The notes under the pieces: model-generated
Databases searched by the model: none
Told to the model about the DNA's origin: nothing
What the model saw: only the letters and a program-made list of their open reading frames with translations
Assembly (NCBI GenBank): GCA_964608605.1
Contig: CAZSOS010000002.1
Location: 105,569-169,568 of the forward strand
DNA: 64,000 bases
Origin: an uncultured Candidatus Saccharibacteria bacterium
Lineage (GTDB): Bacteria > Patescibacteriota > Minisyncoccia > Phycocordibacterales > UBA918
Reading direction: 5' to 3'
Program-made: the position numbers and the translations under genes
In this document: one piece after another, positions 22,834 to 43,866 of the stretch
Layout: the number at the start of each line of letters is the position of its first letter
How positions within the stretch are numbered: the stretch's first letter is position 1

Positions 22834-23292
22834 ATGGGAGCACGTCGTCCAAACTGCGAATGCACTGTCTGCGGCCAACGAATATATAGGAGACCTTTGC
22901 AAATTGAAGGTGGTCAAATTTTTTGTTCGCGCCAGTGTAGCGGTAAACATCAAAGAAAGGTGCGCGTCTGCGAAATTTGTAAGAAGGATTTCTTGGGTAT
23001 AAAGAAAAAATATTGTTCGCGGTCTTGTTCCAATAAATCTCGTACCGGTACAAAGTATAAAATCGGTAAACCGCACGACAAAGCGTTTTTGGTCAACAGT
23101 CTGAAGAAACAACTTGCTGACGCAAGAGGCGGTACATGTGAACGTTGCGGAGAGAAAAACTATGCCATATTACAGATCCACCATAAGCTAGAAAAACACC
23201 GTGGGGGCAACGATAAACCAGAAAATCTTGAATTGCTTTGTCCCAATTGCCATTATTCTAACCACTTTGGCTTTCGTTTGTTCAAGAGCTGA
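22834..23292 (+). CDS. HNH endonuclease with an N-terminal Cys-rich zinc-ribbon region
   Basis: The HNH motif is ILQIHHKLEKHRGGNDKPENLELLCPNCH. There are several CxxC pairs. The gene lies in an AT-rich segment (about 40% GC). Confidence 0.85.
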   Translation: MGARRPNCECTVCGQRIYRRPLQIEGGQIFCSRQCSGKHQRKVRVCEICKKDFLGIKKKYCSRSCSNKSRTGTKYKIGKPHDKAFLVNSLKKQLADARGGTCERCGEKNYAILQIHHKLEKHRGGNDKPENLELLCPNCHYSNHFGFRLFKS

Positions 23293-23320
23293 AATGATGC
23301 TAGAGTGCTCCTTAATAAAC

Positions 23321-23405
23321 GGAAGCGTAGCCAAGCGGTTTAAGGCACTTGTCTTGAAAACAAGCGTATCGAAAGGTACCGTGAGTTCGAATCTCACCGC
23401 TTCCG
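23321..23405 (+). tRNA. tRNA-Ser (anticodon TGA), type II
   Basis: Acceptor GGAAGCG/CGCTTCC. Anticodon loop CTTGAAA. Long variable arm. T-arm GTGAG/TTCGAAT/CTCAC. Confidence 0.85.
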
Positions 23406-23471
23406 CACTAAGAACCTGTTATCGGCATGACCCGAGTACCTAAGTTCGTAGATTTAAGCTAAAATAAGACC

Positions 23472-24871: not shown

Positions 24872-25498
24872 TTGTCCATTATGGCCAAACGATCACAGAA
24901 CCTGAACCGGTACTTCCTCCAGGACATCAATCCGGTGGTGCGCTTCCTCATCGTCTCGGAAACGGTGAGCGCCGGCGCGGTCGGACTCCTGGGCCCGATC
25001 TTCGCCCTCTTCATCGATGACTTCATCATCGGCTCGAACGAAGCGGTGGTCGGTCTGGCGGCTGGCATCTTCCTCTTATCGAAGAGTCTCTTCCAGATAC
25101 CGATCGCGCATTACCTGGATCGGATCCGCGGCGAGAAGGATGACTTCTGGTTTCTCTTCGGCTCGACGGTGCTCACCGCCCTCATTCCCCTACTTTATCT
25201 GGTCATCGATACTCCGATGGAACTGTACCTGGTCCAGTTCGCGCTGGGTATCATCACCGCCGCCACCTATCCGTCTTTCATGGCCATCTTGACCCGACAC
25301 ATGGATAAAGGAAAGGAAGGCATGGAATGGGGCATCTATTTCACCCTGACCGACATCTCGAGCGCGGCCTTAGCCATCATCGGCGGCTTCGTGGCCGCCA
25401 CCGCCGGTTTCCCGGCACTCATCACCGCCGTCGTGATCATCTCGCTAATGAGCGCCGTCTTGATGGTACCGATAAGACCGTATCTCAAAAAGAGGTAG
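24872..25498 (+). CDS. Six-TM membrane protein (half-MFS-like)
   Basis: About six hydrophobic helices. A TATAAT sits 9 nt upstream of the ATG, so the transcript may be leaderless. Confidence 0.5.
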   Translation: MSIMAKRSQNLNRYFLQDINPVVRFLIVSETVSAGAVGLLGPIFALFIDDFIIGSNEAVVGLAAGIFLLSKSLFQIPIAHYLDRIRGEKDDFWFLFGSTVLTALIPLLYLVIDTPMELYLVQFALGIITAATYPSFMAILTRHMDKGKEGMEWGIYFTLTDISSAALAIIGGFVAATAGFPALITAVVIISLMSAVLMVPIRPYLKKR

Positions 25499-25592
25499 CC
25501 AGAGCGACGTAAGTGTGTTATTTTAGTTGACGCTACTTTCATCAAAGTAGCGCTATGAACTGGGATGAAAGCTTGCTTTCATCCGCCCCCTC

Positions 25593-25664
25593 GCTCCCGT
25601 AGTTTAATGGATAGAATGCAGGTTTGCGGTACCTGCGATCCAGGTTCGATTCCTGGCGGGAGCA
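25593..25664 (+). tRNA. tRNA-Arg with apparent anticodon GCG (unusual)
   Basis: Clean cloverleaf: acceptor GCTCCCG/CGGGAGC, anticodon stem CAGGT/ACCTG, loop TTGCGGT, T-arm CCAGG/TTCGATT/CCTGG. Position 34 is G, not the usual A (inosine). Confidence 0.65.
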
Positions 25665-25839
25665 CAAATGGCCGGCGCCGACACGTGAGTGTCGGCGCCG
25701 TTTGCCGACCGCCAGGAATCGAACCCCTTGCCGGGGACCCCTTGGGTCGGCAAGGGGCGGGGTCGCGGCTCGTTACCAGGATCGGAGCGAAGCGAACGAT
25801 TATGGTTACGAGCGGTGACCGGTTCCTGGCGTTCTTTAT

Positions 25840-26334
25840 TCAAAACCCCAGCCACTCCAGCAGCTTGTTGCCCAACGGTTCATGAAGCTCCTCTTCGGGC
25901 AGGCGTTCGCGGAGCAACGATTCGATGTCCTCAAGATGTTCCTCCGGTATCGGCATCACGATGAGCGGCATGTGCAGGCGGTTGGATTTCACCAATAGCT
26001 GCGGACCGCGCTCGTCCTCCTCATCGATACAGAAGGATTCCAAGGCTCCGTAAGGGAACAGCCTCTCGCCGGCGCGGATCCCCCGCTTCCCCACCATGAA
26101 AGGCACGACCCGAGGCGGCTTCACCACCCGAAGCGCCATGACCCCGGCGCTAAGAAGAATGACCAAGGAGAACAGATAGTTGCCGAAGAAGAAGGCGGCC
26201 ACGGCGCCGCAAACGGCGATAATGCCCAAGATCCAGAACCAGTCGGAGCCGCGCTCGACATGGTGATGTTCGGGTGCTTCCCAAGTGATGGCGCGAATGC
26301 TTTCATCCATGACCGTCATTGTAACATCGGTCAA
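25840..26334 (-). CDS. Hypothetical membrane protein
   Basis: Two TM helices and an acidic C-terminal half. No motif. Confidence 0.5.
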   Translation of the reverse strand: MTDVTMTVMDESIRAITWEAPEHHHVERGSDWFWILGIIAVCGAVAAFFFGNYLFSLVILLSAGVMALRVVKPPRVVPFMVGKRGIRAGERLFPYGALESFCIDEEDERGPQLLVKSNRLHMPLIVMPIPEEHLEDIESLLRERLPEEELHEPLGNKLLEWLGF

Positions 26335-26714: not shown

Positions 26715-28238
26715 TTAGGTCTCCTGCACGTCCGGCAGCACCTTGACGGTGCGAGTGGCGCTGTCACCGCCGACGCAAGACAAAGTGAAAGTGACCTCTC
26801 CCAGCATCTGATGCGATACCGAACCGGTGCGGCCCGGGAGGGATGACAGGATAGTGGCCGCACCGGCCTTGATGGAACAACGGGCCGGGTCGTTGCTACC
26901 CAATTCCCAGCAGACGGGCACGTTCTCGCCTCTCAATACCAGATTTTTGCGGCACTCCGGCGACATGCTGGCATGATCGAAACTGGCTCCGGCGCCACCG
27001 CGTGTAGAGACGGTAACGCTGTCAGAGGCTTGCGTCGTGCCTTGTCCGTAGCACAGGAGTCCGAACGTGTGGCTGGTGTTGCCTATCGGCTCATCGAGCG
27101 TATTGTCGATGCCGGAGACGGCGTTGCCGGTGGCGAACCCGTAAAGCGGCGGCACGGCGGCGCAGGAAACAGTGTTAGCCGAACCACCTTGATTCCAACC
27201 CAGCTCGATCTGATCGGTAGGGTCGATGGTGAGGCTCTCGCTCCACGCCGTGGTACCGACCTTCCTCACCTGGAGATTGGCGGTCGGAGGCGGGTAGACG
27301 ACGGTCACGCTTTGCGTGGCCCAGTTGGCGGTCTCACCGCCTGGTCCGGCGCATTTGGCGGCGAAATTCCAGACACCGACGGTATCGAGAGTTTGGTAGA
27401 TACCGCTAGTACCACCACTGTTGGTCGATATGTCAGACGACCAACTGCCGCCAGGCGGCTGTCGTTGCAATCGACACGAAGTAGCGGGACCACCCACAGG
27501 TATATTAAGAATTTTATCCGGTCCGTAACTTACTAACACCTGACTGCCTTTCGTTATGGTGGCCGGTGAAACCGTCACCTTCGCTGAAGGCGCGGGAGGC
27601 GGACCGTATCGATATGCTGAAAAAGCCTTGCTGGTCGTCCCCCCAGGACCGGAACAAGTCACGGTATAGGTCATCCAAGAATCGTAAGCTGGCGTGTTCG
27701 CTGTCTGATAACCTGAGGTGGCCCCGTTACTTCCCGGAACGACGAAATTACTGCCCCAACAAGAAGTAGCGTTGTAACCATACCAGTACACTCGGAGACT
27801 TTGATTCCAATTCATGTAACGAGAAGTGGGAGCTTGGGCCCAACTGGCATCGAAGAGGTCGTGTTGAAAATCAATGACCGGAGCAGGAACAACGGGTGGC
27901 GGACAATAATACGTAGTGAAGTACAGCACCGGGGAATCGATGTCCCAGTTCTGCAACTGGGCCCAGCTTGAGGTATTGTGCGGCATGGTCACCGTCTGAG
28001 CCCCACCACAGGAACTTATGCCCCAGGGTCCGCCGGCGCTGGTGACCAAGCTGTAGTTCCAGGACTTGCAGGTGTTATTGACGTAGAAAGTGGCGTACAC
28101 GTAATTGCCGCCGGACACGCAGGATTGGCTGACCGTGAGATAAGGCTGCGGCTCGGCTTGGGCCGGAACCGGGTGTGACAAGGCTAAGACGCAAACGATC
28201 AATAGGAACGAGGCGCGAATGTAAGCGCGAACTGACAT
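26715..28238 (-). CDS. Secreted multi-module protein with a conserved C-terminal domain ending VLPDVQET
   Basis: Signal peptide, then repeated C-x-G-P-GG beta-sandwich-like modules. The last roughly 75 aa are homologous to the C-terminus of the 29928..31009 protein. Confidence 0.7.
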   Translation of the reverse strand: MSVRAYIRASFLLIVCVLALSHPVPAQAEPQPYLTVSQSCVSGGNYVYATFYVNNTCKSWNYSLVTSAGGPWGISSCGGAQTVTMPHNTSSWAQLQNWDIDSPVLYFTTYYCPPPVVPAPVIDFQHDLFDASWAQAPTSRYMNWNQSLRVYWYGYNATSCWGSNFVVPGSNGATSGYQTANTPAYDSWMTYTVTCSGPGGTTSKAFSAYRYGPPPAPSAKVTVSPATITKGSQVLVSYGPDKILNIPVGGPATSCRLQRQPPGGSWSSDISTNSGGTSGIYQTLDTVGVWNFAAKCAGPGGETANWATQSVTVVYPPPTANLQVRKVGTTAWSESLTIDPTDQIELGWNQGGSANTVSCAAVPPLYGFATGNAVSGIDNTLDEPIGNTSHTFGLLCYGQGTTQASDSVTVSTRGGAGASFDHASMSPECRKNLVLRGENVPVCWELGSNDPARCSIKAGAATILSSLPGRTGSVSHQMLGEVTFTLSCVGGDSATRTVKVLPDVQET

Positions 28239-28314
28239 TTGTAATCATTATCACCCATGGACAGCGCGCGATGAAGCCCGCGCTGTGGTTAACTCGGCTC
28301 GATCGTCGAGTGGA

Positions 28315-29883
28315 TCAGATCTCGTAGCGCGATAGTTTCCAACGGCCGCCTTCCCCTACCACTTCCCCGGTCTGAATGGAACCGTCCGCGCCGTATAACT
28401 TGCCCTCGCTTCGATTCCCGGCAGAAATGATGGAGGTCTGGTTCCAGATCGCCTGGACCCGGAGCATAGTGTCCAACTGATACCACATCAATCGCGGATC
28501 TTGGAATCTGGCGTGCGACAGCGGATGCAGCACGAAAGAGCTCGCGCTCATTTTCCTGGCGCCCATGACGCCGACGCCGGAGACGCTTTCATAGCAGAAC
28601 AAAGTGCCGGGCAGCCACGAGGCGTCATTGGTCAAGGTCTTGGCCGGACCCGGAACATAATTATAGATAGACCTCGAGGTCGCCAGCGTCTCGTCAAAAC
28701 CCAGGATATCGAGGGCGGCGCCGAAGAAGTAGGACACGTATTCCCCTTGCGGCACCAAGAACTGCTTGTCGACGGCATAGACATGTTTGTTCCGGATATC
28801 GTAATAAAAAGAACGCAGCACCGATCTGGTCGGCGTAAGGGAGATACGGGAGGTATCGACTATAACCGTATCGGAATCGGGATGCTCGGTCTCCAGGTAT
28901 TCCTGGAGGCGCGACACGTCCCCGAAAGCGAACGTGTATCTGGAATCTTCCGGCAACAGCACTAGATCGGGACCCAGCTCCAGGGCCGACTCCACGGCCA
29001 TGATCAGATCCCGATCCTTGGCCGCCTGGCCTTCCCGGTCACGGAGGCTGGAGATGGTGAAATCGGTGTCGACGGCGATGACGCGCTGGCCATCTAGAGT
29101 AGGTGGCGTCGGTACATATATAAGGTTCAAGATGAGAAGGACAGCTCCATAACCCAGCAGAGCGGGATTAGAGAGAACGCGCTCATGCAGACGCAGATAG
29201 ATCAGGCTGCCCAATAGCGCAGCGGCGGCAGTTAGACCGTAAAGACCGGCGAGCGCAGAGACCGGATCGAAGAGCGTGAACCTTCCGAAAGCCAATCCGA
29301 CGTAGCCATAGGTAACGTACGCATTGAGGTACGAACCCGGTCCCAGCACGAACAACGACAACGCGAGCGAACCGGCCAATTCCCCGATCAGCCAGGCTAG
29401 CGGAAATAATACCATCAAGATGAGCAGGGTCGCGCTTCGCTGCATCAGGTATCTTGCCGACAGGGCCGGCACTATCAGACCGGCCCCCAGCGACAAAGAG
29501 CAGGTGAACCAGAAAACGCCGATCATGAGGAGTTGGGCTAGGGCGCTCTCGACACCCATCCAGTTCATTGGGTACGAATACCAGAGCCAGAGCAGAGCGC
29601 CAGACGACTTCATCCAACCCACCAACAGCCCGAGTCCGGCGGCCGAAACAAAACTCTTCGATCGCTGGACCCCGATCAGGAACAACACTAGCCCCGGCAA
29701 TACCATGACACCGAGATAAGGAAAAGTAATGAGCGATAGACAGGCACCGCTCGCCACGAAGGCGACGACGGGGGAATTAAATGACCGTCCCTTTAACAGC
29801 TTCTTTGAAAGTGAGAGCGCGGTGCGGCTGAAGTTTGTTAAGGTCATGATGAGCGCGAAGCATGAAGCGATTTGACTAGCCAA
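28315..29883 (-). CDS. lnt: Apolipoprotein N-acyltransferase-like (multi-TM plus CN-hydrolase domain)
   Basis: Seven or eight N-terminal TM helices. The CN-hydrolase region has LVLLPEDS (Glu), DKQFLVPQGEYVS (Lys; compare E. coli HKRHLVPFGEYVP) and TLFCYES (Cys) motifs. Confidence 0.8.
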   Translation of the reverse strand: MASQIASCFALIMTLTNFSRTALSLSKKLLKGRSFNSPVVAFVASGACLSLITFPYLGVMVLPGLVLFLIGVQRSKSFVSAAGLGLLVGWMKSSGALLWLWYSYPMNWMGVESALAQLLMIGVFWFTCSLSLGAGLIVPALSARYLMQRSATLLILMVLFPLAWLIGELAGSLALSLFVLGPGSYLNAYVTYGYVGLAFGRFTLFDPVSALAGLYGLTAAAALLGSLIYLRLHERVLSNPALLGYGAVLLILNLIYVPTPPTLDGQRVIAVDTDFTISSLRDREGQAAKDRDLIMAVESALELGPDLVLLPEDSRYTFAFGDVSRLQEYLETEHPDSDTVIVDTSRISLTPTRSVLRSFYYDIRNKHVYAVDKQFLVPQGEYVSYFFGAALDILGFDETLATSRSIYNYVPGPAKTLTNDASWLPGTLFCYESVSGVGVMGARKMSASSFVLHPLSHARFQDPRLMWYQLDTMLRVQAIWNQTSIISAGNRSEGKLYGADGSIQTGEVVGEGGRWKLSRYEI

Positions 29884-29920
29884 ACCAGCAAAGCGCCGTC
29901 AGTGACGGCGCTTTGCTGGT
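29884..29920. terminator. Hairpin terminator
   Basis: ACCAGCAAAGCGCCGTCA-GTGA-CGGCGCTTTGCTGGT. Confidence 0.6.
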
Positions 29921-29927
29921 TCACTCT

Positions 29928-31009
29928 TTAGGTCTCCTGGATGTCCGGCAGCACCCGGATGAGCATGCTACTGACGTTATTGCCGTCCTCGCAGTCGAGC
30001 GTGATCACCGTTTCGCCGATGGCCGTGAAGTTAGTGGTACCGGAATCCCGACTGAACGGACCAGCGATGACCACGTTACCAGCGCGAAGCACGCAGTTGG
30101 CGGGATCGCTGGTACCGACGTTCCAATCTATCGGCACCTCGGTCCCCTTCCGCACGATCACCGAAGGCGGTACCGTACTGCCTCCGCCACCATCGCAGCT
30201 GGTATTGGAGACGCACGCGTCCTTGCCGTACTCGACATCCACCTCAGTGTAAGCGGAAGCCACTGACTTCACCGCGTCCGGCAGGCCAGCGCAATCTATC
30301 CAGAACCTAGTCTTCTCCGATAGCGGCCCCGTAGGGTGACCAGAGGAATTATTCCGCGCTTTATTCCCACTCCAATTGATCGGTGACGCTAATTGACGGG
30401 CCGTACAGGTAGTCGTATTGGTAGAGTCCCAAGTTAGGCTTGAGGCTTCTGAATATTTCACCTTAGGTGGATTTGCCCAAATACTGACCGTAGGATTAGG
30501 TGGCGGAGGTGGGGGCGGAGGAGGTGGGGGCGGAGGAGGTGGAGCGCAACTTGGAGCCGTGAAAGTAGTCATCAGCTGGTCATGTTCCGGCCAAGACAAG
30601 GTCCAGTGCTGCACCTCTATGGTGTAGGTCTGATTATGCGGAACGACCACGGTGGTGGGACCTCCATACCTATTTATGCCAGTAACGATGCCGGCCTGAT
30701 GCACGATCAGGTTCAGCCAAGGTTCATACGTGGCCACGAAACCGGACATACTGATACTTAAGACGACGCGATCACTATCATAGCAATACGCGGACACGGA
30801 AGTGCGCGGCGGTTCAGCCACCGTGTAACAGTTAGCGGCGTTATATTCGCAAGGATGAGTATCGCCACTAAACGATGAAGCTGGTGACGTCGCGGTGTGG
30901 GCCGACGCGATATCGGCCGTCCACAGAACCATCGCCATGGTCAGCAAGAACACGCACCCCGCCGCGCGCGCTCCCCTTCCTTGATCCGTCATGTTTGAAA
31001 TAAACCGCA
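29928..31009 (-). CDS. Secreted protein with a P15 polyproline linker and the conserved C-terminal domain ending VLPDIQET
   Basis: Signal peptide (start chosen at MRFISN, 31009). An (APPPPPPPPPPPPPPPNP) tract is encoded by a GGNGG repeat. The C-terminal 75 aa are homologous to the 26715..28238 protein. Confidence 0.7.
30488..30535. repeat. GGNGGN simple-sequence tract encoding the polyproline linker
   Basis: ggtggcggaggtgggggcggaggaggtgggggcggaggaggtggag, read on the minus strand as CCN codons. Confidence 0.7.
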
Positions 31010-31152
31010 TGATATTTTTTAAGTGATAGGACTTTAGCCTAATACTAATGCATGAGGGCGGAAGTTCGGACCTCAAGCTGTGAATAATATCTTCAATTGT
31101 CCACAACCGAGAGGATTGTGCATAAATGAGCCCGCCCGTATAGTTTCTAATA

Positions 31153-32340
31153 ATGACAGTCAATAAAATACTCATATCAATAGCGTCGGTGATCGCGCTC
31201 ATTTTAATAGCGGCGGGAGCTTTCTGGTTCTGGCTTAATTACGCGCCAGCGCAGAACGCGCCGGAAACCGGAGACTCCCTGGAACACAACACCGAGCCCA
31301 TAACCATGGTCCCCGAACCGCTCACCGGCAATAGTCCGATATCTGACCTGGCCGACTTCGTCGCCGGCGCCATGGACGCCGAGGGCAAGTTCTTGCTGAG
31401 TTATCGTTGCGAAGCCCAGAACTGCGAACCAGTACCCTCCACCGAGGCCACGGCCTTCGGTTATTCCCTGCTGGGACTTATCGCCGGCGCTGACGCTGGT
31501 AACGACATAGAGCTGCGCCGCCAGGCCGACCTAGCTATCACCCGCGCGCTTAGGTTGTGCGGACAGGATGCCAACTCCTGCTTGTCGAACTTCTTCGCCC
31601 TCGAAGAATACTACGAACGCACCAACGCCAGTTCTTATAAGCAGGCGCTGGAAAAGGCCGGTCAACTGCTACTTACCACCAACGCCAGCCGCCTGGACGC
31701 CGTGGTGGGAGCCTTGATGTTCTACCCTTACAAAAAAATGGAGAGTCTCTACAAGATCACGGATGACGAAAGCTATCTGGAACTTCTGACTGTCGCCGCC
31801 GATACGGCTCTGAACAACTGGCCAGACCGGATCGAAGGCACCGCTATCTATGAGACTGCCGCCGGTCAGAAAGTGAATTACAACCATCTGCTGATAGCCA
31901 GCACCTTATTCATCCCCGCTTACAGAGCCACGAATGATGAGAAATATCTGCGCGCCGCGGCCGATCTCTTCAAGCGATCGGAGTTGGAGCAACATGCCTT
32001 GGGCCTGCGCTCCGAAAGAGGCGTCACGCTGCTTCTTAACAGCATCGAGGGTCTCTTGGATCTCTCCAAGATCGAGACCTTAAGCCAAGCCGACAGGGAC
32101 GCCTTCAGATCCTCGGCCGCGCTGATCATGAAGGACCTGTTCGGCTGGCAGTACGATGCTGCCGATCGCGCCATTGGCGATGGCACCGGTGGCCTCTTGA
32201 CTGGGGTGTCCGACGCTACCGAACCGGCCGGAGTGAACTACAAGAACATCAACCTCAACGGCTGGTTCGCCTATCTGCTCGCGGACCCTTCCATGGCCGA
32301 TATCGACCTGGTCATCTACAAAGCGCCGACCGGGTTCTAA
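31153..32340 (+). CDS. Membrane-anchored protein, paralog 1 (helical-repeat, possibly (alpha/alpha)-barrel-like)
   Basis: N-terminal TM segment. Shares LSYxCxxxxxxCxP, CxxDxxxCxxNFFxLxxYY and recurring D-x-[KS]-YL motifs with the 33070..34146 protein. Confidence 0.55.
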   Translation: MTVNKILISIASVIALILIAAGAFWFWLNYAPAQNAPETGDSLEHNTEPITMVPEPLTGNSPISDLADFVAGAMDAEGKFLLSYRCEAQNCEPVPSTEATAFGYSLLGLIAGADAGNDIELRRQADLAITRALRLCGQDANSCLSNFFALEEYYERTNASSYKQALEKAGQLLLTTNASRLDAVVGALMFYPYKKMESLYKITDDESYLELLTVAADTALNNWPDRIEGTAIYETAAGQKVNYNHLLIASTLFIPAYRATNDEKYLRAAADLFKRSELEQHALGLRSERGVTLLLNSIEGLLDLSKIETLSQADRDAFRSSAALIMKDLFGWQYDAADRAIGDGTGGLLTGVSDATEPAGVNYKNINLNGWFAYLLADPSMADIDLVIYKAPTGF

Positions 32341-35639: not shown

Positions 35640-37802
35640 ATGCCAATTAACACCCCTTACGCCCGCGCCGCCAAAAATTTATTGCCTTTGTTATTGATAA
35701 CCTCCCTCCTGTCGCCATCACTGCTTCCGGCTAGGATCCTAGCCGCGTCTAGTATCGACAACGGCTCCGAAAGTGCCGGAGCTAAAGGCAGCAGTCCGAG
35801 CGACAGCGGTAGCTATAGCGGCAGCGACTCAGGGACCACCGGGTTCGAGGGCTCACCTGAGGTAGGCCCCACAGCGGCGGCTCAGACATCAAACGACGCG
35901 GTGGCGACCGAAGTGGCTGCCACCGCCGGCCCCGGCATCAGCGTGACGCCGGTCGACGCCAGTTCTCCGCACGCTCCAGCGCCGGGAAGTAGCGTCAATG
36001 TCAACGGCGTACAAATGGGCGTGGAGGACGCGCGCGGGGCCTTGGACGCCATAAGCAAGTCCAATGGAGTAGCCGACGTCCAGGCGACCCTAGCCGCTTG
36101 GGCCGACCCTAAAGGCACCATCGAAGCGGGACAGGTCGTCGGACCGTATGGGCACGTCGGCCTCCCGGAGGCAGTGGCTCGAGAAACCGCCACGGTGCAG
36201 GCCGGAATAAACGCTATCTCCTTTGCCAACTCACTACCTACCGGAGTATTGGATCCAGGTCGGCTTGGTTACGACCCGAACAGCTGGAGCAACATCCAGT
36301 CACGACTGGAAGTGATCAACGTGGTCAGTGCTCCGGTGAGCAGGACTCAGACCGGACAGATCGAATACGCTAACGTAGTGGGAGTCGGCAAGGACGCTCA
36401 GGATAAAACTCAGACAAGTCCAGAGTATGAAACCAGGGTCCATACCAACGCGGACGTAGCCGCCAGAATGGCCGCGGCCGGTTTCAATCCTGACGGCTCT
36501 TTGCAAAGAGCGGTAACCATAGATTACGGGAATATAATGGGCGTCACCAAAGGAACCGTCAAAGATTATCAAGCCAATGGCACTCTCGACAGCAAGATCG
36601 CCATGGAGCAGAACATGATCGGCATGGCTCTCAACTCCAGCATAGATAAAGCCCAACTAGGACAAGTCGACCCTAACAGCATAGAGAATCACGGCAAGGT
36701 CGATAACCGAGACACCAATGGTGCTTTCGCTAAATCCCTAGACGACACGATCACCCCTGGTTTATGGGTGGACAGCAACCTCACCGGTAAGCAGGAACTG
36801 GCCATGAGTTATTACGCCAATATAGTCGGATATACTGCGAATCAAGCTGCCGGTATCATAGGTAATTTTAAAGCGGAGAGTAACCTGGACCATCTGGAAG
36901 AAGCGGCTGGCCGGGAGCGTTCCAGTGGCCTGGCTCAATGGAACGCTGCCGCGGCTGCCGGCGAACGCAGACAAGCACTGGAGGATTACGCTGGAGTGAA
37001 ATTTTCCGAGCAACTCGTTAACGGCAGACACACCTCAGGTCCGGGGGCTTTCACGCAACTAGCGTTCACCGTGGCTGAAATGGAAGGAAGATTGACGGGA
37101 CATAAAGACCCTCAGTCAGAAGCTGTGGGCCGCAGTTTCAACGCGAATCCGAATATGACGGCCGCTCAAGCTGCTGAAGAATTCCAAAATGGCTTTGAAC
37201 GGCCAGCTGACCGCTCTCACTCTATTGCCGCCAGACAGAACGGGGCAAGCGAAGCATTGACCGCGTACAACAACCTGGACCCAGGTCGGGAAAACTTCAC
37301 TACCGGTAGCGTATCCGGGCAGCCAGGACAAACCGGTGGTCAGGGCGGCAAGACCGGCAGTGACCAACCCTCGAGGCAAAGCGGGGGTTTTGGTCAGGTG
37401 GAATTCGGAGTCGGTGGATTTCGTGTTACCGTCGACACTGACAAGATCGCCGACCTATTTAGCAATATGTTCTCCGGGTCGGGAGGAGATGGAGGAGCAC
37501 CGGAATACACCGATCTGTCATTCACCGGTAGCGATGATACCGGAAATTCCCTGGAGCTGGAACGGGTCGATATCACCCCGGGCAGGCCCGGCATCTGCCC
37601 CGCCGGACCGGCCGAAGAAGGATTTTCATTCAACATAAAATTCCTCAACAAAGAACACACTGATCAGGTCTACAGCTGTAAGGGTCAGACCACGGCGGAC
37701 AACTTCAATATAGTCACGGCTTATCTCAAGAATTACGAAACCGATAACGTGCAAGATGTCGACGTACTGAGCAAGATGCGGGTCACTTCGGCCAAGTATT
37801 GA
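35640..37802 (+). CDS. Giant secreted protein (720 aa) with a lysozyme-like (phage-tail-lysozyme-type) peptidoglycan hydrolase domain
   Basis: The leader is MPINTPYARAAKNLLPLLLITSLLSPSLLPARILAASS. The internal domain has GIIGNFKAESNLD...GLAQWN..R...L, as in the phage tail lysozyme family. The C-terminus has a YSCKGQTT module. Confidence 0.65.
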   Translation: MPINTPYARAAKNLLPLLLITSLLSPSLLPARILAASSIDNGSESAGAKGSSPSDSGSYSGSDSGTTGFEGSPEVGPTAAAQTSNDAVATEVAATAGPGISVTPVDASSPHAPAPGSSVNVNGVQMGVEDARGALDAISKSNGVADVQATLAAWADPKGTIEAGQVVGPYGHVGLPEAVARETATVQAGINAISFANSLPTGVLDPGRLGYDPNSWSNIQSRLEVINVVSAPVSRTQTGQIEYANVVGVGKDAQDKTQTSPEYETRVHTNADVAARMAAAGFNPDGSLQRAVTIDYGNIMGVTKGTVKDYQANGTLDSKIAMEQNMIGMALNSSIDKAQLGQVDPNSIENHGKVDNRDTNGAFAKSLDDTITPGLWVDSNLTGKQELAMSYYANIVGYTANQAAGIIGNFKAESNLDHLEEAAGRERSSGLAQWNAAAAAGERRQALEDYAGVKFSEQLVNGRHTSGPGAFTQLAFTVAEMEGRLTGHKDPQSEAVGRSFNANPNMTAAQAAEEFQNGFERPADRSHSIAARQNGASEALTAYNNLDPGRENFTTGSVSGQPGQTGGQGGKTGSDQPSRQSGGFGQVEFGVGGFRVTVDTDKIADLFSNMFSGSGGDGGAPEYTDLSFTGSDDTGNSLELERVDITPGRPGICPAGPAEEGFSFNIKFLNKEHTDQVYSCKGQTTADNFNIVTAYLKNYETDNVQDVDVLSKMRVTSAKY

Positions 37803-37862
37803 CAATAATCTCTTATTATGTATAATAAAACCAGTTCTATGTTCCCTGAAAGGAGACATATC

Positions 37863-38444
37863 ATGTACGCGACGATAACCGCGGCCGCCACTTTCCTGGT
37901 CATGTTGCTGGTCACCTCGATCGCAATATCGCCGGCCCCGGCCCAGGAAACCGCAAGCATCTACACCAACATCCCGCCGATGTACGAGGTGAATTGGGGT
38001 AGCGACGAGCCGCTGTCCCCGGAAGCTGACCACGCTCTCCACACCTTTTACGTCTGCGAGTACTCTCCGCGCGGCCAAGCCGCCCTGAAGGAACTGCGCG
38101 ACGCCATCGGCAAGATGTCGTTCGATGACGATTCGAACCGCATCCAACGAGCGGATGATCTGTACGGTCTGGCCAAGCAGCATGAGCGTGAGGGAGTATG
38201 CCGATGGAGCGACCATCAGCAAGAATATTTCCTTTACGGTTATTACCACAGCACGGACGAGTACGACCTCTCCGAAGTACCGTGCACTTCGCTTCCGAAC
38301 GGCATCTGCGCCTACATCCAACCGATGAAGAACGCCCTTAAAGAGGACGAGATGGAGATGGTCTACTCCCTCTTCACCGACACGGATGACGACATCGTCC
38401 GCCAAGAGATCTTCGGCGGCGAACAGTGGGCACTGATCAACTAG
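37863..38444 (+). CDS. Small secreted Cys-containing protein immediately downstream of the 720-aa protein
   Basis: AAAGGAGA sits 8 nt upstream of the ATG at 37863. Signal peptide MYATITAAATFLVMLLVTSIAISPAPAQE. Followed by a hairpin terminator at 38467-38493. Confidence 0.55.
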   Translation: MYATITAAATFLVMLLVTSIAISPAPAQETASIYTNIPPMYEVNWGSDEPLSPEADHALHTFYVCEYSPRGQAALKELRDAIGKMSFDDDSNRIQRADDLYGLAKQHEREGVCRWSDHQQEYFLYGYYHSTDEYDLSEVPCTSLPNGICAYIQPMKNALKEDEMEMVYSLFTDTDDDIVRQEIFGGEQWALIN

Positions 38445-38589
38445 CCCGCCGCGGACCCTGGACCATAAAAGACCCCTACCTTAGGGGTCTTTTCTTATCT
38501 CCCGTTCATCGATAGCCATTCTTGTCTCTATCGCGTATGTGTATAAGGAGCGGGTATTTCCAGAGCCTCAGCATACAATATGTACATAT

Positions 38590-41500
38590 ATGTTAATCAC
38601 AACCATGGCACCCCGCTTTTTATCCGTATTATTAATAATCTCCCTCCTCTCTCCCTCACTCCTACCGTCAGTGGTGTTCGCCCAAAGTAGCGGCGATAAG
38701 CAAGAAGCTGGCGATGAGGGTGAAGACTCCGCCGCGGCAGCAGAAGCGGCGGCGGAAGCTGCCGCCCAAACGGTGAATGAAATGGCCAGTCTGGCGGCCG
38801 GACTGGAAGGGCGTTCCTTTACTGCTTCGTCAGTAGGAGGAGCCAATTTCGATGCCAACAATCCTTCCGTCAACATAACCGCCGACACTGGTGAGACCTT
38901 CACCATGACCACCGATCAGGCAGTAGCGGCGGCGGGAGCGATCGGCGACGCGCAAGCCGCTGGTATCAGTACCTCCAACAACTCCAATTCCCCGGGAGTG
39001 GACGTGGCCGCCACTCTGGAGGCACATTCCCAGGGCGAGACGGGCGTGGTCGTGGGATCCATGTCCGGTGAAATAGGGACCCCCGCCGCGGTGGCTCAGG
39101 CGGAGATAGCGGCGGCCAGCCGGCAAAGCTCGGTCAGCGCCCTAAGCGACGCGGCTTTTGATTCAAGGTTCGCGGGTGCGGCTGCTATTCAAGGGAGTGA
39201 TCTCAACCAGGCATTGGCCGCAGCCTATGGGCAGCTAGCCAATAGCGCCAAGCAAGCTGGTATCTTAACCCTGGGCGGCACTACCCAAGTAGGACCGACC
39301 GGCAACGTAAATGCTCAGTACACCATGAACCAGGCCCTGGTTGCCTCATACCAACAATACGCGAACGTACTAGGTCAGTCTGGTAACCTCGGTCTTTCAG
39401 GCACCACCAACACTTCCTACTCTTACGATAGGTCGACCGGGTCATGGGTCGGCGACCAAAACGGACGAACGTATACGACTCAAGAAGTGGTCGGCGGCAA
39501 CAAAGACTTCAGAGACGCGGCCGCGGAATTCGAAAGGACCAACAACAGGTCATACGTCGATTTCTTCGAAGAAGCTCTGGAAAAGGACTCTGGACGTTTC
39601 CAAGTCTCTTTAGACTTTAGGACGAATCAAATAATCGCGACAGATATTGTTACGGGCCAGATAACCGGCACTAATCTGACGACCGGCACGACCGAGAATC
39701 TGGGCGGAATTTTCCAATCATACGACTCCACTACCGGGACAAATCTGGGATACACTCCACCAGCTGGTACTTCCCTGGCTTTCACCGCTACTGGTCTTGG
39801 CAATTATCAAGTGATCAACGCCAAAGCCGAGCCTCCCAAAGAATCCTTTGTGGGTGCCTATGACACTAAACTTTCCAACTCTGCGGCTAGATCTATGCTA
39901 GATGGTAACGTTACGGTAAAAGACGGAGTAAGCTTCGAGGGAGCACGCGCCAGCACCGTAGCCACAGCTAACCAACTAGCTAAAGATTGTAACTGTGTAG
40001 TACCCATAACTTCCGTGACCGATGGAAAGCATGCCGGCGGTAAAAACTCTCATGGAAATGGTGCCAAATTCGATGTCAGTGACTGGCGATCTCTTGAGTT
40101 CACCTCGTACGTAACCGGCGGAAAAAATGGTTGGACTCAAACCGGCACGCGTGGTGGTGGCCACGGAGGACCGATATACACCAACCCTGATTTCCCTGAG
40201 GTTAATATAGTATACGAGAAAAGTTACCATCACTTTGATATACAAGTCGTCGGAGACGTCGGTAAGGCTGGTCTTGAGATCACTTATGCAACTGGTTCAA
40301 TATTCGAAGGATCACTTCACGCGGACCTGCCCCCAGGGGAGTCATTGAGCACTAACTTTTCAAACATACCCGGAGGAGATGAAACTTCACCCGGATCTCA
40401 AGGCGGATCAAACCCTACCCAACCTGGCAACGTATCACCCGACAGTGGTAAAAGCCTGCCCGATATCATGGCTGATGGAATGGACAGGGTCGGTATCGAT
40501 CCCAACAGCGGGATCGGAAGAGGCGTGCTGGGTTTGGCCGCGGCGGCCGACAATCTGCTCGGCCGGTTCGGTATAGATTTTAATGACCTGATGAGCGGCG
40601 GCGGAGCGGGTCCAGGAAATGAAACGGATGCCCAGGGTGCTGACGCTATGACCTGCCCCTACCCCCTTTCCTGCGACGATAACGACCTGGGAGCGTCGGT
40701 CATCACCGCCATCGCTCCAAACTTAGATGTCGTAAGTTGGGTACTTCGAATTTGGAACCTGGTATCAAACAGCGAAGACAAGGAAGTATCGGTGCCAGCA
40801 GGATATGCCCCCACGCCTGATGCCGTACTGGTAGAGATCGTGACCCATCTGTCTGACAACGCCATTGAAGTACATCGTCCCGACATCGAAGCCACCTTGG
40901 CCAATCCTCGTCTTTACTACACCGAAAAACAATACGAGCAACTCGTCGCTTTACTGAGCGAAGAACCGATACTTACCGACCAAGAAGGTTCCATCATCTA
41001 CTCGAACGGCCTCTATTCCCCGCCGGTCGTTGACGGCCGATACGTGGAGGGTTCTCCTAAGTACGTTTACGTGCTCAAGCAGATCGATGAGAGTGGTAAC
41101 GAATTGCCTGCCACCGATGACAGCGAACCCGGAGGGTTGCTAAACCGGGTGTTGAAGCAGGTATTTGGTGACACTTCCCCGTTTAAAACGGACTCGATCG
41201 AGACCGTATCCTACCGCTTGATCGATCCGGACATGGATACTCCAGCAGATGAATACTATGACTACCTCTTTACCTTGAAGGATGGCAGCGAAAGAGCGGT
41301 GGCGGTGCCGCAATTCTCCTCAGTGGCTCATATGGCGAATAAATTCCGCGACATCGGCTACCAAGGAACGCCTCTGGATATATTGATCATGGCCACGGAG
41401 ACAAACTTGCCTCCAGAAAGAGGTTTGATCGGCAAGATATCGGACTGGATCGGCTCTTTGGTCGGACGCTTCATGCCGAGTTTGACCGAAAACCAAACAA

Positions 41501-42264
41501 CGACCACTTTGCCAGAAACAAAGCGAGGATATTCCGCTGACAACATAGCCAGTGTTTTCATCTACCCTAATGCCGCCGTAGACTGTCCAAACATCGAAGG
41601 ATACCAAAATGGTTACATGTACACTGCCACCATTAACGACCCCGATCGTCCCGGATATATGACCCTGGTCACGGAAGGAAGGTGCGGAAGCGGCGGCGAA
41701 GAGGACTTCTTGGCGGACGCGCTGCAACAGCTGGAGAGCCGCTGGGGATTGGCCGGAACCATAGCCGACTCGACCATGAATAAGGTCAGATTCCGATTTG
41801 AAGAAACTCCATATAAACCAGGTTTGGCCATCGCGTATGTAGGCACCGATGTTCCTTCTGGATCCACGGACCCCGAACCAGCGACTCCAGACCCTGAACC
41901 TGCGGCCACGTCCACCACCCAACTCCCCAACCTCACCAACACCATCACCTTTGAAGTGAAGGCGGTGGGAAGCGAAGGAAAAGTGCTGGCCGACTGGACT
42001 CAAGCGGAGCGGATAACCGTGGCTCCAGGAGTACAGCTATACTTCCGCTGGAATGGGACCGATTACCAGCAGTGTCTTCCCTTCCTCAACGACAACGGCA
42101 ACTACGCGTTGACGGTGCGGAACCGAGCCATGACCACGGGCAACACCGAGAGCGAGGGATACAATATCAACGAAAGGAGTGGCGTGTACCGCCTTGAATG
42201 TGGCGGACAGAGAAACAATGAATTCGGGGTGGATGCTAGGGAGATCGAAGTAGAGGTGAGATAG
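38590..42264 (+). CDS. Giant secreted protein (about 1220 aa) with a putative M15/LAS-type metallopeptidase (VanY/endolysin-like) domain
   Basis: Leader MLITTMAPRFLSVLLIISLLSPSLLPSVVFAQSS is paralogous to that of the 720-aa protein. There is an Ala/Gly/Thr-rich N-terminal third. KHAGGKNSHGNGAKFDVS and YEKSYHHFDIQ resemble the H-x-D / WHF zinc motifs of M15 peptidases. The C-terminal module is YRLECGGQ. The start is ambiguous: 38539 GTG, 38590 or 38605 ATG. Confidence 0.6.
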   Translation: MLITTMAPRFLSVLLIISLLSPSLLPSVVFAQSSGDKQEAGDEGEDSAAAAEAAAEAAAQTVNEMASLAAGLEGRSFTASSVGGANFDANNPSVNITADTGETFTMTTDQAVAAAGAIGDAQAAGISTSNNSNSPGVDVAATLEAHSQGETGVVVGSMSGEIGTPAAVAQAEIAAASRQSSVSALSDAAFDSRFAGAAAIQGSDLNQALAAAYGQLANSAKQAGILTLGGTTQVGPTGNVNAQYTMNQALVASYQQYANVLGQSGNLGLSGTTNTSYSYDRSTGSWVGDQNGRTYTTQEVVGGNKDFRDAAAEFERTNNRSYVDFFEEALEKDSGRFQVSLDFRTNQIIATDIVTGQITGTNLTTGTTENLGGIFQSYDSTTGTNLGYTPPAGTSLAFTATGLGNYQVINAKAEPPKESFVGAYDTKLSNSAARSMLDGNVTVKDGVSFEGARASTVATANQLAKDCNCVVPITSVTDGKHAGGKNSHGNGAKFDVSDWRSLEFTSYVTGGKNGWTQTGTRGGGHGGPIYTNPDFPEVNIVYEKSYHHFDIQVVGDVGKAGLEITYATGSIFEGSLHADLPPGESLSTNFSNIPGGDETSPGSQGGSNPTQPGNVSPDSGKSLPDIMADGMDRVGIDPNSGIGRGVLGLAAAADNLLGRFGIDFNDLMSGGGAGPGNETDAQGADAMTCPYPLSCDDNDLGASVITAIAPNLDVVSWVLRIWNLVSNSEDKEVSVPAGYAPTPDAVLVEIVTHLSDNAIEVHRPDIEATLANPRLYYTEKQYEQLVALLSEEPILTDQEGSIIYSNGLYSPPVVDGRYVEGSPKYVYVLKQIDESGNELPATDDSEPGGLLNRVLKQVFGDTSPFKTDSIETVSYRLIDPDMDTPADEYYDYLFTLKDGSERAVAVPQFSSVAHMANKFRDIGYQGTPLDILIMATETNLPPERGLIGKISDWIGSLVGRFMPSLTENQTTTTLPETKRGYSADNIASVFIYPNAAVDCPNIEGYQNGYMYTATINDPDRPGYMTLVTEGRCGSGGEEDFLADALQQLESRWGLAGTIADSTMNKVRFRFEETPYKPGLAIAYVGTDVPSGSTDPEPATPDPEPAATSTTQLPNLTNTITFEVKAVGSEGKVLADWTQAERITVAPGVQLYFRWNGTDYQQCLPFLNDNGNYALTVRNRAMTTGNTESEGYNINERSGVYRLECGGQRNNEFGVDAREIEVEVR

Positions 42265-43113: not shown

Positions 43114-43608
43114 TCAGCCGTTTTTGAAGAGGACGATACCGGCCGTGACCGAGACATTCAAAGATTCCTTCTGCCCATTCATGGGGATCTCGACGATCGG
43201 GTCGGCGGCATTAAGCCACCCTTCCCCCACCCCTTCGACCTCGTTACCAAACACGTAGGCCACCTTTGGTGGCGGGACGAAATCATGAAGAGAGATCGAC
43301 TTATTGGATTGTTCGATGGCGACGATGGCGAAGCCTTCGTCGCTGAGACGATCGATCAAAACTGGCGCGGCCCGGTCATCGACATGTTCCCACTCCACGA
43401 ATTCCGTCGCGCCAAGGGAGGTCTTCTTTATCTCCGGCACCTCGCGGCCAAAACGATCGAAGGGCGCCGGAGTGGTGCCGATCAGGTAGATCTTCTCCAC
43501 CCCGGCGCCGTCGGCGGTGCGGAATATCGAGCCCACGTTATGAGCGCTGCGGATATTGTCGAGGATGACTATTTTCTGTCGCATAAAATCCGAGTAGAGA
43601 TCGAGCAT
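43114..43608 (-). CDS. SpoU/TrmH-family RNA 2'-O-methyltransferase (TrmL-like)
   Basis: IVILDNIRSAHNVGSIFRTADGAGV...YVFGNEVEGV...IPMNGQKESLNVSVTAGIVL are SPOUT motifs. Confidence 0.85.
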   Translation of the reverse strand: MLDLYSDFMRQKIVILDNIRSAHNVGSIFRTADGAGVEKIYLIGTTPAPFDRFGREVPEIKKTSLGATEFVEWEHVDDRAAPVLIDRLSDEGFAIVAIEQSNKSISLHDFVPPPKVAYVFGNEVEGVGEGWLNAADPIVEIPMNGQKESLNVSVTAGIVLFKNG

Positions 43609-43793
43609 TGCGTGTTCGGTACACTTTTAGATGTCGTCACGAGTTGCTAGATATAATTGTTCGCTACGCTCCAATTCTATTAAGCACTCTTGACCACGGC
43701 TCGCGGCATCTTTCTCCAGGAGAGAGAAAGATGCAACGCTCCGCCTCGAACGCGTATCGAAAAACGACGCGCCGGCGTCGTTTTTCTATCGCG

Positions 43794-43866
43794 TCCGCCC
43801 ACCAGGGATCGAACCTGGGACCATCTCCTTAAAAGGGAGCTGCTCTACCGTCTGAGCTATGGGCGG
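43794..43866 (-). tRNA. tRNA-Lys (anticodon TTT)
   Basis: Acceptor CCGCCCA/TGGGCGG. D-arm GCTCAGACGGTAGAGC. Anticodon loop CTTTTAA. T-arm CCAGG/TTCGATC/CCTGG. One G:A mismatch at 27:43. A terminator hairpin lies at 43760-43790. Confidence 0.75.

Follow-up and report, generated by a model that had tools for sequence, protein, structure and literature searches.

Introduction

The 3' end of tRNA genes, from the T-loop onward, is reportedly the classic class of integration site for tyrosine integrases. Integrative elements which target such sites leave the tRNA gene intact and produce a direct repeat that extends from the T-loop to just past the discriminator base. Insertion places a new terminator beside the tRNA and moves the old 3' end downstream, and elements may accrete in tandem at a single tRNA. 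A second group of pertinent sequences comprises MITEs (miniature inverted-repeat transposable elements), REP/BIME sequences, the Rickettsia palindromic elements, and the Correia and RUP repeats. They are small, non-coding and rich in hairpins, carry terminal inverted repeats, are patchily distributed among relatives, and occur in several subfamilies with decayed and chimeric copies. Here we report on a non-coding module of about 170 nt that follows a tRNA-Arg(GCG) gene in a 64,000 nt stretch of DNA from an uncultured Candidatus Saccharibacteria bacterium (henceforth the window). It contains an inverted copy (X') and a truncated direct copy (X2) of the 3' end of the preceding tRNA gene (X). We describe it with high confidence as a decayed representative of structured cassettes that are associated with tRNA 3' ends and form an apparently undescribed family.

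The modules of this family share the traits listed above with both groups of elements, yet they differ considerably from either. In contrast to the integrative elements the modules measure only 130-190 nt, are non-coding and carry no cargo, and no integrase was found to recur in their flanks or to accompany a larger related element. Instead they possess an inverted copy of the target, a covarying junction, and one core that is found at many tRNAs with arms matched to each of them. Unlike MITEs and palindromic repeats they reside essentially only in the 3' flanks of tRNA genes, in the orientation of the tRNA, and their inverted repeats copy the target. A fixed short target-site duplication and high-copy bursts of near-identical sequences are missing, and no transposase was identified. 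By analogy, one would best liken the module to a cross between a miniature tRNA-targeting integrative element and a palindromic repeat of the MITE or REP type.

The module behind tRNA-Arg(GCG)

The tRNA gene is located at 25593-25665 on the forward strand and is one of seven tRNA genes in the window. ARAGORN reads the anticodon as gcg, and Rfam reports a match to RF00005 at 25593-25664 with 64.2 bits (gathering threshold 29). Isotype and anticodon are as stated in the original prediction, an initial reading of the sequence alone. None of the seven genes, tRNA-Arg(GCG) included, encodes CCA. Segment X consists of the last ~22 nt of tRNA-Arg (25643-25665) and is the source of the copies in the module.

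The initial reading had placed an inverted partial copy of the tRNA 3' end at 25701-25716. Such a copy exists, but it is located about 8 nt further downstream and is longer than claimed: GGTTCGATTCCTGGCGG (25643-25659) and CCGCCAGGAATCGAACC (25709-25725) are complementary at 17 of 17 positions and are separated by 49 nt. By eye, imperfect complementarity reaches back to 25697, i.e., about 24 of 30 positions covering the acceptor strand and the trailer. With up to three mismatches permitted the 17-mer has six matches in the window compared to 0.28 expected; thus, the inverted copy is not a chance event. Two of the six matches are exact, and three of the four inexact ones are T-arms of other tRNA genes.

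The inverted copy is the 5' arm of the module, which covers 25666-25834. The module starts with a trailer and hairpin 1 (25666-25708, +), the 12-bp stem of which (25673-25684/25689-25700; inverted repeat I7) is 100% complementary and encloses a GTGA loop. Hairpin 1 is terminator-like, but it is followed only by GTTTG, a tail of three T. A consensus scan for intrinsic terminators (a G+C-rich hairpin and at least five T in eight positions) found none in 25400-25950. The equivalents of hairpin 1 at other loci do have U-runs. Next is X' (25697-25725, +), the reverse complement of T-loop, 3' strand of the T-stem, 3' strand of the acceptor and trailer, which is perfect over 25709-25725 (I2). X' is the 5' strand of a helix designated P1 and pairs with 25820-25834 (I5, 87%) in the minimum free energy (MFE) fold. 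P2 (25724-25757, +; I16) consists of CCCCTTGCCG and CGGCAAGGGG with GGGGACCCC inside. This 10-bp hairpin had been recognized initially, and a repeat finder places its arms at 25724-25733 and 25748-25757. The P2 stem itself is no helix of the covariance model introduced below; it sits between the pairs at the base of P2 (helices 2 and 3) which display compensatory changes. P3 (25761-25820, +; I1) is a long imperfect hairpin with 24-nt arms (25761-25784/25797-25820) and the tip GGAGCGAAGCGAAC; its base, GGUCG/UGACC, holds a G.U pair. With hairpin 1 and P3 in addition to P2, the nested hairpin cluster proposed at the outset is borne out.

The module ends with X2 (25820-25834, +), the 3' strand of P1. 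It is a truncated direct copy of the tRNA 3' end (CGGTTCCTGGCG versus CGATTCCTGGCG), and its first part, 25820-25831, copies T-loop and T-stem at 11 of 12 positions (direct repeat D2). In intact copies, e.g., in loci L019, L020, L024, L074 and others, X2 continues through the acceptor strand to GCAC. Compared with these, X2 in the window is devoid of the acceptor part, and the original terminator is missing as well. Five bases past X2, at 25840, is the stop codon of a convergent gene (25840-26319, -) that is outside of the module. It codes for a conserved membrane protein of Patescibacteria with 159 aa, counted from ATG.

The covariance model R1, which represents modules of type A, matches 25713-25842 (+) with 75.1 bits and E = 3.4e-19 over model positions 1-133. 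The folding energy of tRNA and module together (25593-25835, 243 nt) is -143.7 kcal/mol, with z = -9.6 against shuffled sequences; fold z-scores range overall from -8 to -9.6. In the MFE fold of the whole transcript the tRNA-Arg cloverleaf is preserved and hairpin 1 stands separate. X' takes X2 as a partner, not the tRNA, and this pairing closes a three-way junction, the other two branches of which are P2 and P3. The module alone reaches -81.9 kcal/mol on the forward strand versus -69.4 on the reverse strand.

The window contains a second copy at 43635-43746 (-). It is of subtype A', i.e., a core without the T-part of X' and without X2, and R1 finds it with 56 bits (E = 1.2e-13, model positions 12-109). 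It is positioned 47 nt downstream of tRNA-Lys(UUU) (43793-43866, -) with a palindromic terminator in between, and is followed by a decayed right end of type B (GTGTACCGAACACGCAATGCTCGATC..., ~43590-43634).

A family of modules at tRNA 3' ends

R1 was built from an alignment of 24 modules and was used to search 53 sequence sets, i.e., 405 kb of fetched sequence. It retrieved 46 copies, 39 of them with a tRNA gene on the same strand 43-441 nt upstream. In all 39 the module is oriented like the tRNA. Six of the seven remaining copies are at the start of a locus where the tRNA was cut off; the seventh is in L047. The tRNAs occupied are Arg-GCG, Arg-UCU, Arg-CCU, His, Ile, Phe, Ser, Val, and Lys. 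By eye, about 11 of 27 species loci of tRNA-Arg(GCG) show the pattern. The order hairpin, inverted copy, hairpins, direct copy was seen in L010, L011, L013-L016, L019, L020, L023 and L024, and L022 has only the hairpin and the inverted copy. The pattern is also present behind tRNA-Val, tRNA-Ser and other tRNAs. A two-anchor pattern scan of JGI metagenomes resulted in 63 matches. About two dozen of these are real and are located behind tRNA-Arg(GCG), Arg(UCU), Arg(CCU), His and Ile; the other ~40 were discarded as chance matches inside coding genes of unrelated bacteria.

A complete cassette is organized in a uniform order: a trailer with a terminator-like hairpin; X', the ~20-nt complement of the tRNA from T-loop to discriminator; a core of P2 and P3; and X2. 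The latter starts at C56/G57 in the T-loop, covers the acceptor strand and reaches GCAC; a second terminator comes after it. X, X' (inverted) and X2 (direct) are three copies of one segment of ~20 nt, and their boundaries coincide. The arms match the tRNA which precedes them, as in the modules at tRNA-Ser (GGATTCGAA / GAATCCCTC...) and at tRNA-Val (GGCTCGAA / GAGCCTCTC...). At least three types of core share this arm logic. Type A, as in the window, has GGGGTCG, the P3 hairpin, and YGTGACCGA, and exists also in the armless form A'. Type B has GTACTGA, a mini-hairpin with a GUA loop, and TCGA; type C is characterized by ...CCGTCCCCGTAGGGGAAGATTCC. In some copies X' is split by an extra hairpin, Px.

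Direct repeats of the tRNA 3' end are found 132-190 nt downstream in single modules and up to 553 nt downstream in arrays. Full 16-mer repeats with 0-2 mismatches are present in 31 tRNA loci. The repeat comprises ~20 nt of the target, and its end varies from 0 to 6 nt beyond GCAC. Tandem arrays consist of three modules at tRNA-Arg of L023, of two identical modules at tRNA-Ser of the same locus, and of mixed types in L041, L085 and L087. Truncated and chimeric copies are common.

Trailer and hairpin 1 are alike in the window, L019 and L074, which have the same module subtype, in spite of three different tRNA acceptor sequences, and they are unlike the trailers of empty loci. From these comparisons the trailer appears to travel with the module subtype. 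Something similar is indicated for X2. A variant with an AC insertion, GAACTTCCTGG, is common to modules at Arg-GCG, Arg-UCU, Arg-CCU and His. The T stem of tRNA-His is CCCGG and at odds with this variant, which therefore was not derived from tRNA-His. At tRNA-His X2 resembles the His tRNA in its acceptor part, and X' complements this tRNA perfectly. Part of X2 thus seems to belong to the element.

Rfam 15 does not contain the family. In the window only tRNA passes the thresholds; more permissive searches of 25560-25860 (E<=10) and of eight module-bearing loci (E<=1) gave nothing but chance matches far below threshold. Hammerhead, hepatitis delta virus (HDV) and twister ribozymes, Y RNA/YrlA, transfer-messenger RNA (tmRNA), group I intron and T-box have no Rfam match at permissive thresholds. 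CUGAUGA/GAAA look-alikes in L023 do not have the helix order of a hammerhead. TIGR arrays, which are associated with Tas/Nop proteins in parasitic bacteria, are built from units of 36 nt that contain dual 9-nt spacers, and have a gene for a Nop-domain protein beside them (PMC12045711). The modules differ from this description in unit size and architecture, and no Nop-domain family was among the flanks. A description of the modules was not found in the full-text literature, the coverage of which is incomplete, so that this is weak evidence of novelty.

Three loci deserve a remark. In L022 (5970-6275) tRNA-Ser(UGA) and tRNA-Arg(GCG) are convergent, and behind each there are a terminator and its own acceptor end as an inverted copy. 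These long palindromes have neither a core nor a direct repeat and may represent a minimal or residual state of the module. In L037 (601-676, -) ARAGORN reports a tRNA-Ile with the anticodon TAT, unusual for bacteria, followed by a type-A module that has neither the acceptor-complement arm nor Px. L097 (1490-1592, +) contains a partial copy of a tRNA 5' end (GGCTCCCGTAAGC) ~50-60 nt upstream of tRNA-Arg(GCG). This is the only 5'-end piece noticed; every module arm is from a 3' end.

Conservation of fold and strand

RNAalifold predicts a consensus of P1, P2 and P3 for the 24 type-A modules in alignment A2, and 18 of its 27 pairs show compensatory changes. In alignment A4, which comprises 45 distinct sequences and was fitted to R1 so that its covariation numbers are somewhat inflated, standard pairs make up 96% of the cells, with changes on both sides at 22 of the 27 pairs. 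The observed values were not reached in any of 500 shuffles of A4, and when partners were slid by 1-3 columns the cells paired at 25-38%. A2 was generated independently with MAFFT and agrees in direction. In A4, helix 1 (X'/X2) is paired in 96.6% of the cells. In P3, nine of the 12 pairs of helix 4 and both pairs of helix 5 change on both sides.

The G.U pair at the base of P3 is present in 24 of 24 sequences in A2 and in 38 of 45 in A4. In A2 G.U pairs outnumber A.C mismatches 40:7, or 16:7 without the invariant pair. For all 24 modules the tRNA-sense strand is more stable than its complement, by a mean of -9.1 kcal/mol. Nine modules of type B form a three-way junction, too, with compensatory changes in 16 of 28 pairs. 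Hairpin tips recurrently carry the motif GAGCGAAGCGAAC and variants thereof, and the closing pairs covary. It is well known that d(GCGAAGC) forms a very stable DNA mini-hairpin; for this reason the folded strand could be either RNA or single-stranded DNA.

Filled and empty loci

Orthologous loci were anchored on the convergent neighbour gene. It has 298 homologues, some with PF18923, and eight of these were looked up; identities given here are at the amino-acid level and relative to the window. The closest relatives retain tRNA-Arg(GCG) with one terminator and no module: L091 (82% identity), L092/93 (79%), L094 (76%), and L100 (74%). L094 is fully syntenic in that an MFS gene is upstream as in the window. 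L017 (65%) is empty as well. L095 (81%) and L097-99 (74%) contain other module types, and in L096 (79%) and L101 (72%) the contig ends within the tRNA. Since the nearest relatives keep the tRNA without the module, the window module is, relative to them, an insertion or else the survivor of repeated losses. A conserved role in processing or attenuation of tRNA-Arg, one of three explanations offered in the original prediction, is contradicted by L091, L092/93, L094 and L100, all of which have the tRNA and no inverted copy, an outcome which that prediction had itself listed as a refutation.

Two further kinds of rearrangement were noted. In L096 and L097-101 the whole tRNA-Arg(GCG) cassette, i.e., promoter, tRNA and terminator, is turned around although it is flanked by the same genes. 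The genes of L100 are arranged as in the window (24872-26319), with MFS first, then the tRNA and the neighbour gene, but the tRNA is inverted and there is no module. L088 (4286-4357) and L089 (64-135) have identical sequences for tRNA-His, the module core and over 700 nt of flank. All differences are confined to the trailer hairpin and to two base pairs of Px, and they are always symmetric on both arms. A simple DNA inversion was discarded as an explanation because, by eye, the reverse complement of the trailer/hairpin segment of L088 is not the L089 sequence. The variant hairpins do not occur anywhere else in the fetched loci.

Origin of the modules

We favour the view that the cassettes are non-autonomous structured insertion elements which target tRNA 3' ends, rather than dispensable cis-acting RNAs, and assign to it a probability of roughly 0.5. 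Here, as for the recombination route, the enzyme and any benefit to the host, we infer rather than observe. A cassette would enter by recombination in, or at, the terminal ~10-20 nt of a tRNA gene and leave the tRNA intact; the X...X2 direct repeat would then be the footprint of entry. The reaction may be catalyzed by a site-specific enzyme supplied in trans. Alternatively, incoming DNA may enter by homologous recombination with the tRNA body and X2 as arms. Our confidence in any particular enzyme or route is low. Precise loss might occur across the X...X2 repeat, and arrays could accumulate in tandem beside the tRNA. In read-through transcripts the X':X2 pairing in P1 would keep X' from invading the tRNA. 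Presumably the original terminator and the acceptor portion of X2 disappeared from the window copy after insertion. If the element were circular, X and X' together with hairpin 1 might form one long rod, the other end of which would be closed by P2 and P3.

Such a structure is reminiscent of integron attC sites and of the attP(+) hairpin of the CTX phage which imitates dif. There, a folded strand recreates the target duplex, as X':X2 or X:X' would recreate the tRNA 3' end. Arrays beside a fixed site and conserved mismatches and bulges are common features. On the other hand, the target of the module is a tRNA gene, R and L box motifs are absent, and no gene of the IntI or Xer type recurs in the flanks. 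We regard the kinship as a resemblance.

A number of observations weigh against an insertion element. Among 148 open reading frames (ORFs) flanking module-bearing tRNAs, examined for recurring families, neither integrases nor transposases recur. Pfam families met with repeatedly are housekeeping ones, namely PilM, FtsA, RuvA, Mur ligase and ABC transporters, besides an HNH protein. An autonomous parent or a kilobase-scale island with the same repeats was not found, nor any repeat beyond 553 nt. No modules were detected in viral contigs of IMG/VR using three patterns or in GenBank phages using blastn. Copies within one genome are divergent, the two in the window being only ~60% alike by eye, so that nothing points to recent bursts. 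With a recombinase alone the exact match between X' and the tRNA stays unexplained: at tRNA-His X' has the CCGGG of the tRNA, and X2 keeps CCTGG. Equally unexplained by a recombinase are the conserved loops and the G.U pair, which look like RNA under selection; here the inflation of the A4 numbers has to be borne in mind. The patchy distribution could result from frequent deletion across the direct repeat. Finally, the filled and empty sites compared are from different species, so that the insertion boundaries are approximate.

The genomes of Patescibacteria are tiny with little non-coding DNA, and yet one or more modules of 130-190 nt are present at ~40% of the tRNA-Arg(GCG) loci in the sample and at many other tRNA loci. 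Should they be mobile, they would be the first recombinase-less miniature elements targeting tRNAs described for Patescibacteria and would mark a way in which gene flanks are turned over, possibly in connection with natural transformation. Should they be RNAs, they would represent a sizeable new family of tRNA-end mimics. For practical purposes the modules account for "partial tRNA" fragments and long palindromes beside tRNA genes in metagenome-assembled genomes (MAGs) of the candidate phyla radiation (CPR), which otherwise are open to misreading as prophage scars, split tRNAs or assembly errors.

Alternative explanations

The modules might be cis-acting RNAs of the tRNA transcription unit that benefit the host. 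They would be transcribed by read-through, fold into the three-way junction, be inherited vertically and often be lost. P1 would imitate the stacked acceptor and T stems and serve in 3'-end processing, in insulation of the transcript or its termination, or as a mimic of the tRNA end or a decoy for tRNA-binding proteins. The strong compensatory change, the strand-specific fold, the G.U pair in every type-A module of A2, the conserved GAGCGAAGCGAAC tips, the CUGC loops of Px and a GAA-AG junction all argue for an RNA, as does the co-orientation with the tRNA. In the window hairpin 1 has no proper U-tract, therefore read-through is plausible, and the MFE fold leaves the tRNA folded while X' is occupied by X2. 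However, the nearest relatives have the same tRNA and neighbours without a module, which therefore is dispensable. Good terminators with U-runs stand in front of many copies. In P1 the discriminator and the C after it are paired as well, which sets it apart from the substrates of RNase P, RNase Z and the CCA-adding enzyme. Truncated and chimeric copies are common, an Rfam family does not match, and tandem arrays as well as unrelated core types with the same arm logic fit insertion better. We consider such a cis-RNA role unlikely. Nonetheless, a functional RNA stays in the discussion because the loops are conserved, the G.U pair is nearly invariant and co-orientation is strict, and it is compatible with an insertion element; the two do not exclude each other.

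A comparison with known tRNA mimics is instructive in this context. Like the tRNA-like domain of tmRNA, viral tRNA-like structures (TLS) and signals of the mascRNA type, the module has a 3' end identical to that of a tRNA. P1 corresponds to the coaxial helix of acceptor and T-stem, and its 5' strand exits to Px as it would to a D arm. Unlike in those structures, an extended helix and two hairpins stand in place of the T-loop, the discriminator is paired and so is the base after it, and there is neither an anticodon-like arm nor a match in Rfam.

A more radical proposition is that the modules constitute a new class of small self-propagating structured element, RNA or single-stranded DNA, the arms of which are templated by, or programmed against, the 3' end of the occupied tRNA. 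X' would then be a guide of ~20 nt to the target, masked by the mimic X2. Base pairing would direct insertion or recombination at tRNA genes with host enzymes acting in trans. Such an element could also drive the flipping and reshuffling of tRNA cassettes in Patescibacteria. The proposition is doubtful.

The initial reading had also offered an attachment-site scar. Of its three explanations this comes nearest: a phage or integrative element would have entered via a tyrosine integrase and subsequently lost its interior, so that attL and attR were left close together. A direct repeat of the tRNA 3' end from the T-loop, an intact tRNA, and a second terminator after the repeat in complete copies would be expected in this case and are seen. 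But what is present behind many tRNAs is a complete folded module of ~130-190 nt and not the scar of a large element. The size is uniform; the folded core covaries across many genomes and at least nine tRNA species; integrases do not recur, large islands with the repeats and copies in viruses or phages were not encountered, and an inverted copy is foreign to att scars. We consider an ordinary scar quite improbable.

Even less can be said for the third suggestion, a decayed second tRNA; it would be a gene on the reverse strand, convergent with tRNA-Arg and possibly generated by the cassette inversion seen in relatives. To be sure, the reverse strand at 25725-25702 resembles T-loop, T-stem and the acceptor 3' strand (GGTTCGATTCCTGGCGGTCGGCA), GCCGACC (25750-25744) could pair with GGTCGGC (inverted repeat I4), and the orientation of tRNA-Arg(GCG) does flip among relatives. 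Yet neither ARAGORN nor Rfam, even at E = 10, reports a tRNA on this strand, which folds worse than the forward strand. The same arm ends at the T-loop in dozens of module loci, and in L023 it corresponds to the complementary sequence of the 3' strand (GCCC) and not to the 5' strand of the tRNA itself (GTCC). The suggestion is thus highly improbable.

Chance similarity combined with ordinary terminators of two convergent genes would fit the location and the several hairpins, but the likelihood is negligible in view of the 17/17 match only 49 nt away (0.28 expected even at three mismatches), the R1 hit of E = 3.4e-19, the fold z-scores of -8 to -9.6, and the lack of a consensus terminator.

The tRNA-Arg gene, its leader and its neighbours

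The window is part of a chromosome of Patescibacteria/CPR. It encodes PilM, both subunits of ribonucleotide reductase (RNR), PolA, a Mur ligase and YibE/F; with these housekeeping genes an origin from a phage or jumbo phage is ruled out. GTDB was scanned, one genome per species, with one exact pattern of anticodon arm and T-loop. The same anticodon arm was found in 27 species loci, all of them from Patescibacteria, namely Kaiserbacteria, Nomurabacteria, Paceibacterota, Parcubacteria and MAGs labelled Saccharibacteria. Of these 25 were called tRNA-Arg(GCG), and the other two are cut by the locus start. A tRNA-Arg(ACG) is absent from the 64-kb window and from every Patescibacteria locus fetched. 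It has been reported that CPR appear to have no tRNA-Arg(ACG) gene, that tRNA-Arg(GCG) reads CGU and CGC, and that CGA and CGG are read by UCG and CCG tRNAs (Shulgina and Eddy, 2021; PMC8629427). The tRNA in the window is exactly this tRNA, without any difference. CGC is the most frequent Arg codon in 20 long ORFs of the window (223 of 546). Initially the GCG anticodon had been viewed as an anomaly, since bacteria normally read CGN with an ACG tRNA and inosine. Because this usage in CPR is published and the identical anticodon arm was found in Patescibacteria only, it is correct and ordinary, and merely a reminder that in CPR CGY is decoded by a tRNA with G34.

A TGYTATTTTAG motif upstream of the tRNA (25514-25526, +) is shared with three orthologous loci, L091, L092 and L094, where it likewise stands ahead of tRNA-Arg(GCG). 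Going by its conservation it probably is the -10 region of the tRNA promoter; a sigma-70 consensus scan gave no match to it. The 5' leader contains two hairpins on the forward strand, 25531-25539/25544-25552 and 25563-25572/25575-25584 (inverted repeats I19 and I15), both 100% complementary. The second had been announced as a GC hairpin. The hairpin is real (25563-25584), but its composition is A/T-rich. L091 and L094 have one leader hairpin each with sequences unrelated to those of the window, and the leader of the window is longer, ~67 nt.

Ahead of the leader is an MFS_1 ORF (24872-25498, +) of 208 aa that covers only the N-terminal half of the Pfam profile. An MFS_1 gene of 205 aa adjoins the tRNA in L100, and homologous sequence is present at the truncated contig end of L094. 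Because of these homologous sequences next to the tRNA the ORF may be a genuine half-size transporter and not a truncation caused by insertion.

The HNH gene mentioned above is located directly upstream of tRNA-Ser(UGA) and is present with or without modules. In the window it is represented by an ORF of 152 aa (22834-23406, +). Since the gene-tRNA pair is kept in L015, L022 and L023, it looks like a resident gene and not like a homing endonuclease tied to the modules. Elsewhere in the window, 26715-31202 (-) and 35640-42264 (+) contain large ORFs of 507, 522 and 424 aa and one of 1241 aa without a Pfam match, and a 720-aa ORF with a phage-tail-lysozyme domain adjoins the Mur-ligase gene.

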